From Clostridia bacterium (GTDB taxonomy: Bacteria; Bacillota; Clostridia; Christensenellales; Maliibacteriaceae), in contig JAFRLQ010000053.1 in NCBI GenBank assembly GCA_017431145.1, forward strand, positions 59,710-123,709: a stretch of DNA of 64,000 nucleotides, given 5' to 3'. How positions within the stretch are numbered: the first letter of the stretch is position 1; each line of letters starts with the position of its first letter. Below, piece by piece: positions 31,699 to 39,696 of this stretch. The position numbers were made by a program, and so were the translations under genes. Below the pieces are notes generated by a model. It was not told the DNA's origin. It saw only the letters and a program-made list of their open reading frames with translations, and did no database searches.

Positions 31699-32142
31699 TC
31701 ATGCTTCCTCCGGAGCCCAGGATTTCTGCAGTTCCTCGATGATCAGGAACCCGTCAGTTTTCACTGCGATCTGATACTGATCCTCATACACGATCTCGCC
31801 CGGCGAATTGGTGTAGACGAGATAATACGGATGATTGTATTTTTCCAGCAGCCAGAGCGCCGGACGGATCATCTTCATCATCTCTTCCGTGTTCTCTGTC
31901 TTGAACCAGCAGATGACAGGCTCCCTGCGCATGCACGGCTCGGGCCATGGAAGATGCTCCGCGAACCATCCGTCAATCTCTTTGAACAGTTCCGCGTCTT
32001 CCTCCTCCATCACATCATTCTGGACCATCTGCCAGCACATACTGAAAACACCCTTGGCATACATCGTGTTTTCCGCCAGTTCTTTCCCCTGTATCCGCGC
32101 ATATTTATACCTTGAGTTCATCCCCGGAATCCTCCCGTTCAT
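31699..32142 (-). CDS. Hypothetical cytoplasmic protein
   Basis: 147 aa with no recognisable family. Its ATG overlaps the stop of the upstream surface-protein gene (ATGA at 32139-32142). An alternative ATG at residue 8 has a GGGAGG RBS. Confidence 0.55.
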   Translation of the reverse strand: MNGRIPGMNSRYKYARIQGKELAENTMYAKGVFSMCWQMVQNDVMEEEDAELFKEIDGWFAEHLPWPEPCMRREPVICWFKTENTEEMMKMIRPALWLLEKYNHPYYLVYTNSPGEIVYEDQYQIAVKTDGFLIIEELQKSWAPEEA

Positions 32143-34055
32143 GCTGCTTTCTTCCTGCGTATCAGTATCAGGGCACAGCCCGCTGCCGCAGCTGCGATCA
32201 CCGCCGCAGCTCCGCCGCAGATCAGATAAAGCGGCATCCTGTAGCCCTTGACGGCAATATGCACCGTGCTTGCCGGCGTTTCCACAGCAGAGGGTCTGAA
32301 TACCGTTTCCGCTTTGATGAAAGAGCCGTATCCGGGCACTGCGAAGACATTCACTTCCCCTTTGCGGGGAACAGTGATCTGTGCCTTTTCAGCCAGGATA
32401 AAGCATGAAGGCGCGTACTGTGGAATATATGCCACAGCTGCTTCCACGGTTTCTCCCGTATCCGCCGCCAGCGCGATGCCGTTTTTCGCTTCTGACTTCA
32501 CGAAGCACTTCCGATCGGTCAGCGTGATATTCGCTGTTCCGAACAGGATTCCGTACGCCGTTCCTTCCTTGCCTGCACGCACTCTGGATTCCAGAACTGC
32601 GTCTGTAACGTTGAGTTCGCGTCCCACTGTCATGCCAAACGCTTCCGTCATTCCCCTGACGTCGAGTTTTGCTTTGCAGCCTTCCTCGAGCATAAAGAGT
32701 CCGCCGATCTGTACCGCGACCGTGTTCGCCGTTTTCGGCCCGTAGATTTTTACCTTCAGCACGCTTCCATTCATCAGGTCGACGGAATTTCCCGTCTCCC
32801 CTCCGAAGACACCGATCAGATTCCCCGTATACTCCTTCCTCGCGGGTCTGGCGGAAAGTTCGACATTGATGACTGCATTGTCCGCATTGATCGAACCCAG
32901 TCCGTTCAGCGAGATCCCGCTCAGCATGGCGATATACTGGTCTGTCGGAATGAAATTCTTCGGCACAGCCGTGCCTTTCACATTGAGCGTCGCGCCGTTG
33001 GCATAGATCGATCCCATAATGAACAGACTGTCCTTCACAGTCGGTCCCACAGAGACGCGTACGGGTTTTGAGTCTACATCCACGACGGCGCCGTCATACA
33101 TGCGCAGATCTCCGTCCGTATGGATCGCCGTTCCATGCGCGTTGATCGACGCGTGTGTTCCCTCATCGAAATACAGGGAATAGCATGTGATGCCGTCTGC
33201 GAAATCGTTCTTTCGCGGCCGGCCGGTAAAGTCAGACATAAACTCGATGTTCGCATCTGTATAGATATAGTTGCTTCCGCCTTTGATCACCAGCGGATCG
33301 CCGTCAAAAACGAGATTCGGATGATTCCCCTCACCTTTTGTTCCGAAGAACGCGTTGAACGTCACACCGCCGGAGTGGTAATCCGCGTCATAGTAGTTAT
33401 TGGTAATGACGCATTTCCCTTTCATGTGGAAATAGTACTCCAGATCCTCGCTGTTCCTGCGCATCAGAAACACACACAGGGCTGCTGATGTGCGGGGATC
33501 ACATACGAACCTGCCGTTGCTGAGCCTGACATTTTCAAACGTTATGTTCACGCCGTCGGGATCGAAGTACACCTTTCCTTTTCCAAGGCCTGCTCCCTTC
33601 AGATCAAGCTCGTCACCCGGCGTAAGCGCAAACTCGCCGATATAAAGGACCGTGATGTCCTCCGTCTTGTTCTTGTTGGTCAGTGTCGCCTCTTCCGTCG
33701 TCAGGACATTTCCCTTCCTGTCTTCCATGACACACCAGTATGTCAGCACTTCCTGTGAATCCTGTTCAATGGAAGGCACGATCAGCGTTTCCGTGTGCGC
33801 ACTGGAACCCTGAAGTTCAAAAATGTTGTATCCGTCTGAGAAATACCACTGATAGGATTTGATCTTCCCCGGCTTGTCCACTTCCACATGGAATTCCGCG
33901 CCGTTGGGGTAATTGACCTCCACACTCTGGGGCTGTGAAATGATCACGGGCGGCGCGTATGCCGCCGACGCCTTCTGCGGGATCAGGACCGCGCACACGA
34001 CCAGAAGCAGGATCCCGATTCCGAGGACCGCCATCTTTTTCAGTTCTCGTTTCAT
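32139..34055 (-). CDS. Secreted, C-terminally membrane-anchored surface protein with an N-terminal Ig-like domain and a probable beta-helix region
   Basis: 638 aa. Signal peptide MKRELKKMAVLGIGILLLVVCAVLIPQKASA. Ig-like module (PPVIISQPQSV...YQWYF...LTYWCVMED). C-terminal TM helix followed by RRKKAA. Confidence 0.7.
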   Translation of the reverse strand: MKRELKKMAVLGIGILLLVVCAVLIPQKASAAYAPPVIISQPQSVEVNYPNGAEFHVEVDKPGKIKSYQWYFSDGYNIFELQGSSAHTETLIVPSIEQDSQEVLTYWCVMEDRKGNVLTTEEATLTNKNKTEDITVLYIGEFALTPGDELDLKGAGLGKGKVYFDPDGVNITFENVRLSNGRFVCDPRTSAALCVFLMRRNSEDLEYYFHMKGKCVITNNYYDADYHSGGVTFNAFFGTKGEGNHPNLVFDGDPLVIKGGSNYIYTDANIEFMSDFTGRPRKNDFADGITCYSLYFDEGTHASINAHGTAIHTDGDLRMYDGAVVDVDSKPVRVSVGPTVKDSLFIMGSIYANGATLNVKGTAVPKNFIPTDQYIAMLSGISLNGLGSINADNAVINVELSARPARKEYTGNLIGVFGGETGNSVDLMNGSVLKVKIYGPKTANTVAVQIGGLFMLEEGCKAKLDVRGMTEAFGMTVGRELNVTDAVLESRVRAGKEGTAYGILFGTANITLTDRKCFVKSEAKNGIALAADTGETVEAAVAYIPQYAPSCFILAEKAQITVPRKGEVNVFAVPGYGSFIKAETVFRPSAVETPASTVHIAVKGYRMPLYLICGGAAAVIAAAAAGCALILIRRKKAA

Positions 34056-34086: not shown

Positions 34087-34110
34087 ACGCCCCGGCGTTT
34101 CCCGGGGCGT
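34087..34110 (-). terminator. Intrinsic terminator ending the STAS/MATE operon
   Basis: ACGCCCCGG-cgtttc-CCGGGGCGT, followed on the minus strand by TTTTTATT. Confidence 0.8.
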
Positions 34111-34119
34111 ATTTGGTTG

Positions 34120-35892
34120 TCAGACTTTGATCGTCAGAACATTCAGTCCGAGTATGTTCTGATACTGTATGTCCTCCGCCATCTTGAAGATCATGCGCAA
34201 TCCGATATTCTTTGTCACATCATCCGGATCGGCGATCTTCTGCCGTTCTCTGGGATCAAACGGCACGCAGTCGTCCTTCAGTCTCAGGATGAGGTCATTG
34301 TCTTTATGGACGACACGCACGTCAACAGAATGCTTCTTTTTGTCTTTCGTGAATCCGTGGTCGACGATATTGCCTGCCATTTCCTCCATCGCAAGACCTG
34401 CAAGATAGGACCTGTGTGCGTCGATCCCCTTCTCTTCGCAGAAAGCCTGGACCCGCTGCGAGATCGTTACGACATCCTCGATGCTTTTGATACTCAGGTC
34501 CATACGCTCATCGTCTGTCACACCGAAATCATCCGGTATGACCATAAGATCGTCCATGCTGCGCGGAAAATGTTTTTTGCGGATCAGTGCGTAGATGACG
34601 CAGATCAGGATGCATCCCACGCCGTTGAGGATATTGGCGATATATACGCTGTTCATCTTCAGAGCCGGGATCAGCAGCGCAGTGAAACCTGCAACAAACA
34701 CCGCCCCGTCGAACAGGGACAGGATATTGACGAGCACGTCCTTTCCGGAAGCCTGTCCGTAGTTGATGAAATGGATCGCGATGGTGCTCAGCGGCATACA
34801 GACCGGGATAAGCCGGAGGCCCCACACCGTCATCATGTAGACCGGATCCGCAGGATCCCGGTAGAAGATCCGTGTGAGCGGCACGGCGAAAATGATGAGC
34901 AATGCTGAAACCGCGCACATCAGCGGCACATAGCGCGTGAACATCACGCGCATGATATCTGCCAGCGTCCTCCTGTCTTCCTCGCCGACGCTGACGGACA
35001 TCAGCATACGGGAAACAGCCTGCATACCGAACGGGATCGCCCAGAATATCCTGAGCAGACTGTCCACCGCGGCAAACGCGGACAGCGCAACGCTCCCCAC
35101 ATAAGCAAGAAGCAGCGCGTTCACGATCAGTCCGCGGATCGTCTCATAGACTCTGGCGCTCGCCGCAGGGAAGCCGATGCGCAGGATCGCTCCGCTTTCC
35201 TTCCATGCAAGGCCTTTCATGCTGAATCTAAGATGCGATTTCTTGGAAAAGAAGTAAGGCGCCTGTACCAGAAAGAACGCCCAGAGCCCGATGGAGGAGG
35301 CCAGCGCCAGGCCGAAGATCTCCATTTTCAGCACAAGAACGAACAGGAAATTCAGAACGATATTCAGAAAGATGTAGACGCCGATCGCGACGAGCGTCCG
35401 GTTGCCTTTGTTCTCCATCGACAGAAATGCCTGCAGCTGGTTGCCCACCACGAGCGGGAACACGCCGATCGACATGCCCAGAAGATACTGATTGAACAGC
35501 GGCCGCAGCACTGGATCCTTGGCGAGAAAACCGGTCAGATCGAACGCACCGAAGATTACGAACAGAACTGTAAAAACGATCCCGATAATCGCTGAGATCA
35601 CCAGACTCAGCGAGAACACGTTGCGCATTTTCTCCTGCTGATTCTGCCCCATGTATTTCCCGCACAGGATCACGGAACCGCCGACCATCGTCATGTTGAT
35701 CGCCGTGATCAGCATATTGATGGGCCCGTACAATCCGATCGCGCTCATGGAATCGACGCTGATAAAGTTGCTGGCATAAAAACTGGAAACGATCCCGTTT
35801 ACCGCCGTCACTGCCGACAGCAGGATCTGGATCGGCAGAAGTTTCATCATCAGTTTTGCAATCATTTTGGTGTTGGCTGCCTGTTTTTCCAT
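34120..35892 (-). CDS. MATE-family efflux transporter fused to a C-terminal GHKL (SpoIIAB/RsbW-like anti-sigma) ATPase-fold domain
   Basis: 590 aa. About 450 aa form a 12-TM MATE-like core. The last 135 aa or so carry an N-box (EEMAGNIVDHG), a G1-like DDCVPFDP and a degenerate G2 (NIGLRMIF). Confidence 0.8.
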   Translation of the reverse strand: MEKQAANTKMIAKLMMKLLPIQILLSAVTAVNGIVSSFYASNFISVDSMSAIGLYGPINMLITAINMTMVGGSVILCGKYMGQNQQEKMRNVFSLSLVISAIIGIVFTVLFVIFGAFDLTGFLAKDPVLRPLFNQYLLGMSIGVFPLVVGNQLQAFLSMENKGNRTLVAIGVYIFLNIVLNFLFVLVLKMEIFGLALASSIGLWAFFLVQAPYFFSKKSHLRFSMKGLAWKESGAILRIGFPAASARVYETIRGLIVNALLLAYVGSVALSAFAAVDSLLRIFWAIPFGMQAVSRMLMSVSVGEEDRRTLADIMRVMFTRYVPLMCAVSALLIIFAVPLTRIFYRDPADPVYMMTVWGLRLIPVCMPLSTIAIHFINYGQASGKDVLVNILSLFDGAVFVAGFTALLIPALKMNSVYIANILNGVGCILICVIYALIRKKHFPRSMDDLMVIPDDFGVTDDERMDLSIKSIEDVVTISQRVQAFCEEKGIDAHRSYLAGLAMEEMAGNIVDHGFTKDKKKHSVDVRVVHKDNDLILRLKDDCVPFDPRERQKIADPDDVTKNIGLRMIFKMAEDIQYQNILGLNVLTIKV

Positions 35893-35907: not shown

Positions 35908-36696
35908 TCAATCGATCAGCCCGAAATGCCGCAGCGCATTTCCGATGCCGTCTTCATCCACTGTATCCGTTACGTAATCCGCAGCCGCCTTGACAGTGTC
36001 ACCTGCGTTTCCCATCGCAACACCGATCCCGGCAAACTGCAGCATTTCGATATCGTTTTCTCCGTCTCCGAATGCCATGATCTGGGAACGTTCCAGCCCG
36101 TTCTCGTCAAGGTATTTCTGAATGCCTGAGGCTTTTCCGCCGCCCCGTGGAATGATGTCGATACCCGTCTCAGCCCAGCTGGAAATAGAACATTCATCCA
36201 GAAGATCGTTCAGTATCTGCTTTTCATGCTCCGGGATAAATGCCAGGATCTGGTAGACGTTCTCCCCCTCATAGGTACCGATCTGCGGGATCGTGCCCAT
36301 CGTTTCCGCCTGTGTCTTCACAACGGTATCGTTGACGTAATTGATGTAGCGGTCGTTCTCCCCGATCAGCACGAACGGAATGCGTTTCGCACGGAATATC
36401 TGTTCCAGAACTTCCATTTCGCCTTTGTCGATCGCGGTCCCCGCATACACTTTCCTGTTTCCGTCCAGAAGCAGCTGCCCGTTCAGCGTCAGGTATCCGT
36501 CGAACTCGATCTCGCTGACCGGCAGTTTGGAGTATTCCTGCATATGTCTGCCCGTCGCAATGACCGTTTTGATCCCTTTTTCGCGCAGCCTCCGGAGCGC
36601 TACGCGCGTTTCCTGCGGCACGTCGTTCAGTTTATGTGACAGAAGCGTTCCGTCGACATCGAAAAACACCGCCCTGATATCATGTTCTCCGCTCAC
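35908..36696 (-). CDS. Cof-type HAD-IIB phosphatase
   Basis: HAD motif I FFDVDGTLL and motif IV GDGENDIEM. The track start (TTG at 36720) was trimmed to the GTG at 36696, which has an AGGAGG RBS 7 nt upstream. Confidence 0.8.
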   Translation of the reverse strand: MSGEHDIRAVFFDVDGTLLSHKLNDVPQETRVALRRLREKGIKTVIATGRHMQEYSKLPVSEIEFDGYLTLNGQLLLDGNRKVYAGTAIDKGEMEVLEQIFRAKRIPFVLIGENDRYINYVNDTVVKTQAETMGTIPQIGTYEGENVYQILAFIPEHEKQILNDLLDECSISSWAETGIDIIPRGGGKASGIQKYLDENGLERSQIMAFGDGENDIEMLQFAGIGVAMGNAGDTVKAAADYVTDTVDEDGIGNALRHFGLID

Positions 36697-37561
36697 TGTT
36701 GTACCTCCTGACCTTCTCAAAAAAACGCTTCATGCCCGCAGGCCCCTGTTCCGCATCCTCGAGATTCGTATCTCCGAGTTCGATCAGTTTGTTTTTGCCG
36801 TGGTAATCGCTTCCCGCCGTGACGTACAGCCCGTTCTTTTCCGCCAGTGTCAGAAGGCTCTCCGTCAGTCTTTTCGGGAAACCGGAATAGAACGCCTCAA
36901 GTCCCTGAAGTCCGAACCCCATGAGCCGTGAAACGCGCTCCTCCATCTCCTCTCCAATGATAAGCTGGTCTCCGCTCCCGTATGAGGGATGCGCCAGGAC
37001 CGGAATACCGCCCGACGCGAGGATCCCCTCGATCGCTTCTTCCGGCCGTACATACTCGCTTTTGAAATGGATCTTGTTGATGTAATCCAGGATCGCCTCT
37101 TCCTTGGTCTTCACATAGCCGTATTTCACCATCAGATTTCCGATGTGCGGCTTCCCGGGATTGTCCAGTGCGAAAAGCGCGTCCTTGTCCTCCTGTGAAA
37201 ACACGAATCCGAATTCCTTCTCGACAAAATCCACCCGCGCGCGCACCTTGTTCATGCGGTAGCTGTGTCCCAGATCCACGATCCGCTGCACACCTTCCGA
37301 TTGCGGCTCGTACCCGTATCCCAGAATGTGGTACTTCCCATATTCATCCTTGCAGGAGAACTCGGCGCCGGTGATGAACTGAGGGTCTTCGGGCTTCAGA
37401 ATATCCAGAACGATCCTGCAGCCTTTGACCGCATCGTGGTCCGTGACCGCGAAAAGACCGATCCCCGCGTCTTTTACGCGCAAAAGGATTTCCTCCGGCG
37501 TATCCGTGCCGTCGGAAACCCTTGTATGCATATGCAGATCGATCTTCTTAGGAATAACCAT
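36680..37561 (-). CDS. PHP-domain metal-dependent phosphoesterase
   Basis: 293 aa. IDLHMHTRVSDG, FAVTDHD, VLAHP and GSDYHG, which are PHP motifs. Confidence 0.8.
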   Translation of the reverse strand: MVIPKKIDLHMHTRVSDGTDTPEEILLRVKDAGIGLFAVTDHDAVKGCRIVLDILKPEDPQFITGAEFSCKDEYGKYHILGYGYEPQSEGVQRIVDLGHSYRMNKVRARVDFVEKEFGFVFSQEDKDALFALDNPGKPHIGNLMVKYGYVKTKEEAILDYINKIHFKSEYVRPEEAIEGILASGGIPVLAHPSYGSGDQLIIGEEMEERVSRLMGFGLQGLEAFYSGFPKRLTESLLTLAEKNGLYVTAGSDYHGKNKLIELGDTNLEDAEQGPAGMKRFFEKVRRYNSERRT

Positions 37562-37591: not shown

Positions 37592-39169
37592 TCACAGATT
37601 CTTTTTCAGTTTCAGTATGTTTCTCCCGTCTTTGTATTCATAAACGATATCATCCATCGTTTTCTTTGCCAGGAATATGCCCAGTCCGCCGATCCTGCGT
37701 TCCTCCGCAGAGAGTGTCACATCGGGTTCCTCCGATGCCAGCGGATCATACGGGACCCCCTGATCCATGAACGTGATGGTGACAGTGACAGGCGCTTCGG
37801 ACACTTCCATCAGAACCGTCGCGTTTCCGTGTTCCGGTGCGTAGGCATAGTTCGCGATATTCACGAAGATCTCCTCCGCTGCGACAGCGATCTGCATGCG
37901 GGCTCTCGGAGGGCAGTCGGTATCCTCAAGATTCCTGTCGATGAAATCCAGCACTTCCTGCAGATTCTCCACGTCCGCACCGATCTCCAGCTCATTGCGG
38001 GCAAACAGCAGCGTATCCGTCTTTTCCAGCAGTTCCAGAAGCTCGCCCTTCCACAGTTCGATCTCCGCTCTGCCTTCAGGCGTCTCCATACCTTTCCTGC
38101 GGATCGATCTTCTGATCATGCGCGCATACCCGATGATCCTCGCCTTGTCTTCCACTTCGCGGATCCTGTACTCGTTCTGCGTTCCCAGATAAGCTGCCAG
38201 TGCTTTGTGCCAGAACTGTTTTCCGATGTCCAGCGTAAAGCCCTGGAAACGTTCGATCGCCGTATTGTCATACTCGGAGTATCCGATAAAGGAATTATAC
38301 ATGGACGCCAGTTCAAAGATCGGATGCCCGACCGCCAGCGTATCCATATCGATCAGCAGCGTCTCGTCGTTCTGAAGCATGACGTTTTTCGTATGGTAAT
38401 CACCATGGATCATATGATCGTCATGCGGCACTTCCTCGACCAGTCTGATCAGTTTTTCGCCTGCGTCCTCCGGCAGATAATCCTTCATGAAGCGCACCCA
38501 ATTGAGCGCCGTCTCCTTCATGTCCGGTAGTTTTCCTTCCGGGACCAGCGTGCTGTGGATCTTCTTCAGCATTCCGATATACTCTTCCACGCACCAGTCC
38601 ATCTTTTCGGGCTCCGTCTCCAGTATCTTCGAAAAGGAGCGGGCATTCAGAAATTCGAAAACCGATCCGTAACTGTCATTGACACGCACCACATCATAAG
38701 AGATCGCCGTCGGGATCCCGAGGACCAGCGCAAGACGCGCCACTTCCCTCTCATGCTGGATGTCCGCCAGCGCGTCCGCATTATTGTAGACCTTGATGAC
38801 ATTGTCCTGGTCGATCCTGTAGATCGTCCCGTTCGCACCGCGTCCGACTTCCTCGCATCCCTCCACGGAAACGACTCTGTACGCCTTTTCCACCTTCATC
38901 ATCTGCGTGAACCCAGTCATGTCGAGAATCTCGTAAACATCCGAGTTGACATTGATGATCCGAAGATCGGGATTCGTCTTTTTCAGACGCAGAAGGACAC
39001 GCAGGCCGGCGCTGGAAATGTATTCCAGCTCCTCCATATCAAGCACGACCGGCACTCCGGTTTTTCCATCCAGAACGGACTGTATATGCGCTTCCGCGTC
39101 TGCCGCATTGCGGGAATCGATCCTCCCTTTCAGATCGACTGTAACAGCCCCGTTGGTCAAGTCAGCCAT
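37592..39169 (-). CDS. Three-domain signalling protein: STAS + APH/ChoK-like protein-kinase-fold phosphotransferase + GHKL (anti-sigma-type) ATPase domain
   Basis: 525 aa. STAS motif LEYISSAGLRVLL (residues 48-60). Kinase motifs GRGANGTIY, VIKVY, HGDYHTKN (255-262) and LIDMD (272-276). GHKL motifs EEIFVNIANY, DQGVPYDP and GGLGIFL (494-500). Confidence 0.8.
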   Translation of the reverse strand: MADLTNGAVTVDLKGRIDSRNAADAEAHIQSVLDGKTGVPVVLDMEELEYISSAGLRVLLRLKKTNPDLRIINVNSDVYEILDMTGFTQMMKVEKAYRVVSVEGCEEVGRGANGTIYRIDQDNVIKVYNNADALADIQHEREVARLALVLGIPTAISYDVVRVNDSYGSVFEFLNARSFSKILETEPEKMDWCVEEYIGMLKKIHSTLVPEGKLPDMKETALNWVRFMKDYLPEDAGEKLIRLVEEVPHDDHMIHGDYHTKNVMLQNDETLLIDMDTLAVGHPIFELASMYNSFIGYSEYDNTAIERFQGFTLDIGKQFWHKALAAYLGTQNEYRIREVEDKARIIGYARMIRRSIRRKGMETPEGRAEIELWKGELLELLEKTDTLLFARNELEIGADVENLQEVLDFIDRNLEDTDCPPRARMQIAVAAEEIFVNIANYAYAPEHGNATVLMEVSEAPVTVTITFMDQGVPYDPLASEEPDVTLSAEERRIGGLGIFLAKKTMDDIVYEYKDGRNILKLKKNL

Positions 39170-39209: not shown

Positions 39210-39512
39210 TTATTCGATCGTCAGAATCTCCGCGAAACCGGTCAGCTCAAAGATCTCCGCGATCGTATCGTTCAGATTCCGAACCTTCATTTCGCCTTTT
39301 TCCTTGTTCATGATCTTCTGCGTCGCAAGCAGCACACGCAGTCCGGCGGAAGAGATATAATCCAGTTTCTCAAAATCCAGAGTCAGATCTTTCACGCCTT
39401 CCAAAGAGTTCATCAGATCCTCTTCCAGAACAGGGGCTGTGATGGTATCCAGTCTCCCTTCCAGTGCGAACAAAGCTTTTCCCTCTTCGATTGTCTTGTT
39501 GATATTCAGCAT
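39210..39512 (-). CDS. STAS-domain protein (anti-sigma-factor-antagonist type)
   Basis: 100 aa. DYISSAGLRVLL with the conserved Ser-Ser. The 11 residues YISSAGLRVLL are identical to those in the STAS domain of the next gene. Confidence 0.85.
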   Translation of the reverse strand: MLNINKTIEEGKALFALEGRLDTITAPVLEEDLMNSLEGVKDLTLDFEKLDYISSAGLRVLLATQKIMNKEKGEMKVRNLNDTIAEIFELTGFAEILTIE

Positions 39513-39696
39513 TCCGTTATACTCCTTTTTCTGCTGTTATTCTGATACGGACAGTTTCCTGCCTTAAAAAAAGTAAAACCACGCTCTTATCCACCTATAA
39601 TACAGGTGAGCATTCTTATGTATATTTTCTATCCTCAGCACGCCCTGTGTCAAGTCTTTCATACGTGCTTGACATATGCCGAAAAGAAAAACCGAA

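Follow-up and report, generated by a model that had tools for sequence, protein, structure and literature searches.

What does a single bacterial polypeptide do that carries a STAS domain, a kinase of the APH/ChoK fold and a GHKL domain resembling RsbW and SpoIIAB? The question is raised by a stretch of 64,000 nucleotides from a Clostridia bacterium (contig JAFRLQ010000053.1, positions 59,710 to 123,709; this whole stretch is referred to as the window), in which the three domains are encoded as one protein of 525 residues. In textbooks, partner-switching systems figure as regulators of sigma factors; the 525-residue protein is probably a fused form of such a switch, of the RsbV/RsbW/RsbU type, but its output, judged from domain composition and gene content, would be the APH/ChoK-fold kinase and not a sigma factor. 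It is likely that the GHKL domain, paired with a SpoIIE-type phosphatase of the PP2C family, regulates the APH kinase through STAS, and that the arrangement is not simply one of two kinases acting on one substrate.

Domain architecture and predicted structure

The list of open reading frames and their translations gives a single protein for the gene, starting with ATG; a strong Shine-Dalgarno sequence, AAAGGAGG, lies 5' of it. The gene is divided as follows:

37592..39169, minus strand: STAS-APH-GHKL gene, 525 residues, stop codon at 37592-37594 (open reading frame, three Pfam domains, AlphaFold2 model)
38885..39169, minus strand: STAS domain, residues 1-95 (Pfam), with the codon of S53 at 39011-39013 (alignment and invariance of S53)
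38855..38884, minus strand: short conserved linker AYRVVSVEGC, leading from STAS to the kinase N-lobe and ending just before the Gly-rich loop
38000..38854, minus strand: APH/ChoK-fold kinase domain, residues 106-390 (Pfam, Foldseek, catalytic residues)
38819-38845, 38792-38794, 38384-38407 and 38342-38350, minus strand: within the kinase, the Gly-rich loop, K126, HGDYHTKN and DMD, respectively
37595..37993, minus strand: RsbW/SpoIIAB-like GHKL domain, residues 393-525 (Pfam, alignment to RsbW and SpoIIAB)
37841-37876, 37742-37765 and 37670-37690, minus strand: within GHKL, the N-box, G1 and G2, respectively

An earlier note, made by eye from the letters of the window, had proposed this three-part anatomy, and all three parts are assigned by Pfam: STAS to residues 5-95 (E 4e-13), APH (PF01636) to residues 106-303 (E 9.6e-17; 62 bits versus a cutoff of 23.2) and HATPase_c_2 (PF13581) to residues 398-523 (E 9e-21), the first and the last likewise well over their gathering cutoffs. 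The central region is thus placed by profile search in a kinase family, which removes the objection, raised by the note itself, that it might have a non-kinase fold. Among the NCBIfam models, that of the anti-sigma-antagonist superfamily passes its cutoff on the 525-residue protein, and TIGR02172, an uncharacterised APH-like paralogous family of Fibrobacter succinogenes, scores 109.7 bits versus a cutoff of 228.2; by these scores the protein is related to TIGR02172 and not a member of it.

An AlphaFold2 model computed from the homologue alignment reached a mean predicted local distance difference test (pLDDT) of 93.9 and a predicted template modelling score of 0.86, and its secondary structure is canonical for each part, that is, for STAS, for a bilobal kinase and for a Bergerat-fold domain. 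In the model a helix of residues 53-65 begins at S53, and pLDDT exceeds 90 in the segment between STAS and kinase; the APH kinase appears to be rigidly joined to STAS via the conserved 10-residue linker. When the central part was compared with the PDB by Foldseek, the best matches were APH(2''), APH(3'), APH(4), MTR kinase, NahK and choline kinase (E ~1e-9, target TM 0.5-0.6), with 11-18% identity over the structural alignments; by predicted fold and by motifs the central domain belongs to the APH superfamily. Sequence searches of the PDB, with the single sequence as well as with a profile, gave matches to the APH part that are confined to the surroundings of the catalytic loop, for which reason the substrate of the kinase cannot be deduced from them.

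Conservation of the catalytic and putative regulatory residues

The motifs on which the assignment of function depends are these:

Residues 51-56: STAS motif ISSAGL, with S52 and S53
Residues 109-117: Gly-rich loop GRGANGTIY
Residues 124-128: VIKVY, with K126
Residues 255-262: catalytic loop HGDYHTKN, with D257 and N262
Residues 273-276: metal-binding IDMD
Residues 432-443: GHKL N-box EEIFVNIANYAY, with E433 and N437
Residues 469-476: GHKL G1, DQGVPYDP
Residues 494-500: GHKL G2, GGLGIFL

Conservation was assessed in an alignment of 125 sequences, consisting of the window protein, 18 three-domain and 106 two-domain homologues with identities of 31-78%. S53, H255, N262 and D274 are invariant, G109, G111, K126, E140 and D257 are kept in at least 90%, and each member of the APH catalytic set (G109/G111/G114, K126, E140, H255/D257/N262, D274) is found in 88-100%; in the linker, R98 and S101 are kept in ~85-88%. 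Two STAS serines, S52 and S53, had been named in the earlier note; in an alignment to SpoIIAA structures it is S53, present in 125/125 sequences, which falls on the phospho-serine Ser58. Within GHKL, E433 and N437 fall on E46 and N50 of SpoIIAB and on the N-box of RsbW, with the alignment in register; D469, G471 and G494-G497 are conserved as well, and the boxes are retained in 19 three-domain homologues and in 10 GHKL domains, stand-alone ones included. The Gly-rich loop, the lysine, HGDYHTKN, IDMD and the N, G1 and G2 boxes, all of them first matched by eye, therefore lie at the expected catalytic positions and are conserved by alignment.

Distribution and domain variants of the family

A protein database search with the 525-residue protein returned about 8000 matches, of which the top 120 clusters are all STAS-APH-GHKL proteins with 71-78% identity and equal length; they derive from Oscillospiraceae, Ruminococcaceae and metagenome-assembled genomes (MAGs) of Clostridia, and bear generic names only. 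A frameshift or an assembly artefact as the origin of the fusion is ruled out, because more than 100 clusters show identical length and domains. By the same count, the arrangement does not deserve to be called unusual, as it had been: it is abundant in rumen and gut Bacillota.

An exhaustive search of representatives at 50% identity, with E<=1e-30 as the limit, yielded 849 proteins. Of the 150 matches listed, most are ~390 residues long and cover only residues 4-389, which makes a two-domain STAS-APH protein the conserved core. STAS-APH is on this distribution the ancestral as well as the most widespread unit, within whose family the C-terminal fusions with GHKL make up one clade. In a neighbour-joining tree, which is rough and has no support values, the C-terminal fusion appears at the base of one large clade, forms lacking GHKL branch off in several places inside this clade, and split arrangements are basal. 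Other fusions occur: GHKL-STAS-APH, with GHKL at the N-terminus (P0126), HD_4-STAS-APH (P0192), HD-CE-STAS-APH (P0186), STAS-APH followed by a PolyA_pol head (P0227) and STAS-APH-PHP (P0128), the last being weakly evidenced by one contig of only 3 kb.

Two MAGs labelled Spirochaetales/Spirochaetes (L015, JAGABZ010000016.1, and L050, CAKJZO010000051.1; L numbers denote loci) contain three-domain genes whose products are 64-71% identical to the window protein, in the order STAS, PP2C, fused gene, PHP that is also found elsewhere; this suggests either horizontal transfer or mis-binning. A search of the full-text literature, in a collection to which most subscription journals do not belong, turned up no description of STAS-APH or STAS-APH-GHKL proteins.

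Gene context in related loci

One genome per species was scanned for relatives, which gave 95; 80 loci, almost all from rumen or gut Bacillota MAGs, were kept and screened by tblastn and with custom hidden Markov models. In the window the order of genes is free STAS, 40 nucleotides, fused gene, 30 nucleotides, PHP, Cof-type HAD, 15 nucleotides, MATE-GHKL, and the immediate neighbours of the fused gene are:

39210..39512, minus strand: free STAS, anti-sigma-antagonist-like (Pfam 1.4e-16; TIGR00377 above cutoff), 40 nucleotides upstream of the fused gene
36680..37561, minus strand: PHP-family phosphoesterase, TrpH/YciV-like (Pfam PHP), 30 nucleotides downstream of the fused gene

The free STAS protein is 36% identical overall to the fused STAS domain, and the 11 residues which the earlier note had seen in both form one identical run, YISSAGLRVLL. 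In most of the loci a free STAS paralogue adjoins the fused gene or sits within a few kb of it, and the Ser-Ser motif is kept in 54/54 of its orthologues. It accompanies GHKL: 43 of the 57 GHKL-bearing loci have a free STAS gene, compared with none of the six close relatives that lack GHKL (Fisher p=6e-4, a value uncorrected for phylogeny). In 44/80 loci there is a SpoIIE-type PP2C match, which in most cases lies directly upstream of the fused gene; the linked PP2C proteins are membrane proteins, some of them with dCache/HAMP or 5TMR-LYT sensor domains.

The place of the GHKL domain varies. It is fused C-terminally to STAS-APH in the window and in 63 loci, it is encoded by a gene of its own up- or downstream of STAS-APH in others (L075-77, L053, L089), and it is attached to the C-terminus of an adjacent membrane PP2C in still others (L073, L074, L081, L087, L091). 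The two-domain relatives with ~40% identity show the same components in different orders, namely STAS-APH / PP2C-GHKL / STAS-APH (L081), SDF / STAS / PP2C-GHKL / HD_4 / STAS-APH (L087, L088), STAS / GHKL / x / STAS-APH (L089) and SDF / STAS / PP2C-GHKL / STAS-APH (L091, L092); for the distant two-domain representatives L082-L084 and L086 the contigs had insufficient length or their gene content told nothing about the cassette. In other words, GHKL takes interchangeable positions across genomes with respect to STAS-APH, PP2C and free STAS, and the cassette persists to ~40% identity while the surrounding synteny does not. The housekeeping genes that flank the string in the window (recA, cinA, pgsA, rimO) recur in none of the 80 related loci, which is why the conserved gene set indicates a functional link and not inherited synteny. 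GHKL is best described as a mobile add-on from a multi-gene partner-switching cassette that includes a membrane PP2C.

Phosphohydrolase genes also belong to the neighbourhood. A PHP (TrpH-like) gene lies immediately downstream in 38/71 related loci, and in five further loci (L016:4091-4645, L027, L033, L042, L079) the same slot is taken by an HD_4 gene. HD_4-STAS-APH and HD_4-APH fusions were found in at least 25 clusters, a robust observation; some of them are without STAS (P0446, P0452, P0498). Separately, a small HD_4 gene (SpoT/Mesh1-like) was seen directly upstream of STAS-APH at L075:2251-2817, L076 and L087:6430-6996.

A proposed mechanism

In the mechanism proposed here the GHKL domain would phosphorylate S53 in the fused STAS, its counterpart in the free STAS, or both of these serines, and a SpoIIE-type PP2C would remove the phosphate on an extracellular or membrane signal; this phosphatase is adjacent in many relatives, and in the genome of the window it would have to lie elsewhere. 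Depending on how the fused STAS is phosphorylated and docked, the active site of the APH domain would then be opened or closed, with phosphorylation either activating or inhibiting the kinase, and the APH domain would phosphorylate a substrate that is probably a small molecule. Competition of free STAS with fused STAS for GHKL would set the threshold of the switch, and the neighbouring PHP phosphoesterase, or HD_4 in other loci, would reverse or consume the APH product. That the two STAS domains share, or compete for, GHKL is a reasonable idea which fits the data, since both keep the serine within YISSAGLRVLL and since free STAS tracks GHKL among the loci.

Two observations weigh against a partner switch with the APH kinase as its output. 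No PP2C gene was detected in the 64-kb window by tblastn (E<0.01), and in a group of close relatives (L059-L068, L071) STAS-APH retains S53 although neither GHKL nor free STAS nor PP2C is encoded close by; as these genes stand alone, STAS-APH can exist without a linked switch.

Alternative explanations

The last gene of the string in the window suggests that the switch might act chiefly on transport:

34120..35892, minus strand: MATE transporter with C-terminal RsbW-like GHKL domain (Pfam MatE and HATPase_c_2), last gene of the string

If transport were the main output, unphosphorylated free STAS would dock on a transporter-borne, partly degenerate GHKL domain, and STAS-APH-GHKL would mainly phosphorylate free STAS and thereby remove it from play, a scheme that can coexist with control of the APH kinase. 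MATE-GHKL is again found close to the fused gene in L014, L018, L020, L034 and L038, and its family has at least 1365 members, all generically named. In this family Glu, Asn and His of the N-box are invariant, G1 reads D-D-C (Cys for Gly) and G2 reads N-I-G-x-R-M; because of the latter two, the GHKL domain of the MATE protein may serve partner binding only rather than act as a kinase, and MATE-GHKL is a possible second docking partner for free STAS. MATE-GHKL, a transporter joined to an anti-sigma-like domain, is a counterpart of the SulP-STAS arrangement.

Transporters of the SDF (sodium:dicarboxylate) family, too, flank the cassette, in 10 loci, distant ones included, and carry an N-terminal domain of ~140 residues that is a degenerate GHKL (hhalign probability 90%, E 1.4e-6): Arg stands in place of the N-box Asn, and the ATP lid is missing. 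Such genes were noted at L003:4331-5971, L012:4325-5935, L043:7323-8921, L045, L047, L022, L087:2462-4060 and L091/L092:2845-4470; the 64-kb window has none. Control of transporters by STAS has precedents in the STAS domains of SLC26/SulP proteins (PMC8256260) and in MlaB-MlaF (PMC7367683). Yet transporter-GHKL genes are present in a minority of loci only, and an output in transport leaves unexplained why the APH catalytic residues and the serine of the fused STAS are invariant across the family; as the principal function of the switch, transport is considered unlikely.

The protein could, alternatively, be part of a classical anti-sigma module, with GHKL sequestering an unlinked sigma factor, the STAS domains as antagonists and the APH domain as an accessory sensor or enzyme. 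The GHKL domain does match the RsbW and SpoIIAB models, the STAS domains match anti-sigma-antagonist models, and a sigma gene may well lie apart from those of its regulators. Against this stand the partners that are conserved, which are PP2C, PHP/HD_4 and transporters, and the fact that a GHKL fused to PP2C or to STAS-APH has its partners in cis; a sigma-70-family gene was found in only 2/80 loci and not in the window by tblastn with a SigF probe, which ECF-type (extracytoplasmic function) factors might escape. There is little probability left for sigma control by this route.

About as doubtful is the idea that it is the APH-fold domain which, as a protein kinase, phosphorylates the STAS serine, S53 in cis or that of the free STAS, and that GHKL is a binding module or a second kinase. 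It would account for the occurrence of STAS-APH with its invariant S53 where no GHKL kinase is linked, and the linker indeed sets STAS right beside the Gly-rich loop; in addition there are weak matches to YihE/SrkA and to the CotS/CotI family, APH-fold proteins that are described as protein kinases. The best structural matches, however, are all small-molecule kinases, and wherever a switch is linked the canonical GHKL kinase is always supplied. Moreover, the HD_4-APH proteins without STAS named above belong to the same family, from which it follows that the APH kinase has a role independent of STAS.

A resistance kinase of the aminoglycoside/macrolide type under signal control, to which Pfam APH membership and the Foldseek matches to APH enzymes might point, is highly improbable and was rejected, as no curated resistance model is matched: all NCBIfam resistance models stay far under their cutoffs at E>=0.005 (APH(6), APH(3') and related, E 0.005-0.06), the PDB sequence matches are limited to the catalytic loop, the context is chromosomal and of the housekeeping type with no mobile-element genes noticed nearby, and conservation of the family extends widely among gut anaerobes.

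A possible kinase and phosphohydrolase pair

If the fused protein is a partner switch that gates its APH kinase, the phosphohydrolases beside it invite a further interpretation. PHP (TrpH-like) and HD_4 (SpoT/Mesh1-like) are families of nucleotide 3'-(pyro)phosphate hydrolases. Since they alternate beside the kinase gene, and since HD_4 is even fused to the kinase in the clusters mentioned above, the STAS-gated APH kinase and the phosphohydrolase that usually accompanies it may form a writer/eraser pair for an undescribed phosphorylated small molecule. Given the reactions of these two families, the molecule might be nucleotide-like, for example a 3'- or 2'-phosphorylated nucleotide signal; its level would be set by the membrane-sensing partner switch, and the pseudo-GHKL transporters would respond to the same switch. 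No nucleotide kinase with the APH fold is known to us, and for this reason the existence of such a pair is considered quite unlikely.

For the PHP protein of the window the best NCBIfam models are those of 3',5'-nucleoside bisphosphate phosphatase and of RNase RNM (RNase AM/Rnm), both below cutoff, and PDB matches are 3e0f, 2yb1 and 7ug9. It is followed by a second putative phosphatase gene, which elsewhere was found next to the cassette only in L014:

35908..36720, minus strand: Cof-type HAD-IIB phosphatase (Pfam Hydrolase_3 1e-54; TIGR00099 above cutoff)

Other features of the window

The gene string is bordered by two signals of different quality:

39624..39653, minus strand: promoter-like site TTGACA-18-GAAAAT upstream of free STAS, from a consensus scan; weak, as the number of such sites is not above shuffle expectation
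34087..34110, minus strand: terminator-like GC-rich hairpin with T-run, 10 nucleotides after the MATE-GHKL stop codon, with a 9-bp stem of which 8 pairs are GC

Directly after the hairpin lies a gene for a protein of 638 residues (32139-34055, minus strand), which by eye has an apparent N-terminal signal peptide and an apparent C-terminal membrane anchor and has no match in NCBIfam or PADLOC. Over its N-terminal ~50 residues, an open reading frame of 147 residues (31699-32142, minus strand), for which Pfam gives nothing at a useful E-value, looks by eye like the product of L012:7920-8378, which is located directly downstream of the fused gene of L012; it may encode a loosely associated small protein. 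Near the cassette a membrane protein of ~400 residues was seen in ~9 loci (among them L011:2462-3667, L067:8719-9939, L059:7169-8383, L009:7645-8811, L008:2669-3856), and the one of L011 is assigned to DUF218 by Pfam. A role of the string in defence was considered and dropped, because the PADLOC models gave no matches for six of its proteins. Over the window as a whole (1-64000), almost all 2-kb blocks have a negative GC skew, and the minus strand carries most of the long open reading frames, housekeeping-looking ones included, which fits a location on a single replichore whose genes point in the direction of replication.

Relation to known systems

The systems of Bacillus from which partner switching is known, RsbV/RsbW/RsbU and SpoIIAA/SpoIIAB/SpoIIE, share with the proteins described here a STAS domain in which a phosphorylatable serine opens helix alpha2, a serine kinase of the HATPase_c_2 type with N, G1 and G2 boxes, and a SpoIIE/PPM-type phosphatase, which is encoded alongside in relatives of the window protein, in distant loci also fused to GHKL. 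They differ in that here no sigma factor is linked that GHKL could sequester (by the SigF-probe search), that GHKL and one STAS are in one chain with an APH-fold kinase, and that the phosphatases of the relatives are membrane sensors.

Likewise, the central domain has in common with the small-molecule kinases of the APH/ChoK type, hygromycin kinase included, and with TIGR02172 the bilobal fold with a helical C-terminal subdomain as well as the complete catalytic set, i.e., Gly-rich loop, beta3 Lys, alphaC Glu, HxDxxxxN and metal-binding Asp; in contrast to them it is accompanied by STAS and GHKL, and its identity to the solved structures is low, as given above.

Multidomain partner-switch proteins include Rv1364c of Mycobacterium tuberculosis (PAS-PP2C-GHKL-STAS) and HsbR, with HsbA, of Pseudomonas aeruginosa. 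A further example is SypE of Vibrio fischeri (GHKL-REC-PP2C), which works with SypA (PMC10120452). As in the family described here, switch modules (GHKL, STAS, PP2C) are fused in single chains in these systems, whose outputs, like the one proposed here, are not sigma factors; unlike it, none of Rv1364c, SypE and HsbR has an APH-fold kinase. The chain encoded in the window does not include PP2C, and relatives have PP2C-GHKL beside STAS-APH.

The closest functional precedent, and one that has been studied experimentally, is All4160 of Anabaena, a STAS-glycosyltransferase on which HenR, a PP2C, and the kinases Alr3423 and All2284 exert control through the serine of its STAS (bioRxiv 10.64898/2026.04.08.717354); with it, direct control of an enzyme by a partner switch via a fused STAS was demonstrated only recently. 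Both the architecture and the gene context agree with this type of STAS-enzyme fusion: an N-terminal STAS with a predicted phospho-serine is fused to an enzyme, and a serine kinase and a PP2C would exert control other than via a sigma factor. The differences lie in the enzyme, which is an APH/ChoK-fold kinase and not a glycosyltransferase, in the serine kinase, which is part of the same polypeptide, in the extra free STAS paralogue next door, and in the hosts, which are Bacillota and not cyanobacteria. Should the APH kinase prove to be the output, partner switches would have a second and abundant class of enzymatic outputs, with the fold of a small-molecule (APH/ChoK) kinase, in a family that occurs in dominant rumen and gut Bacillota. 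Its natural fusion and fission variants, in which GHKL is on the kinase, on the phosphatase or alone and a PHP or HD_4 is either part of the chain or a neighbour, make the wiring readable from the genes, and the same data point to a kinase/phosphohydrolase pair and to transporters with RsbW-like domains. Compared with the systems known so far, both the putative enzymatic output of this partner-switching cassette and the topology of its fusion are new.

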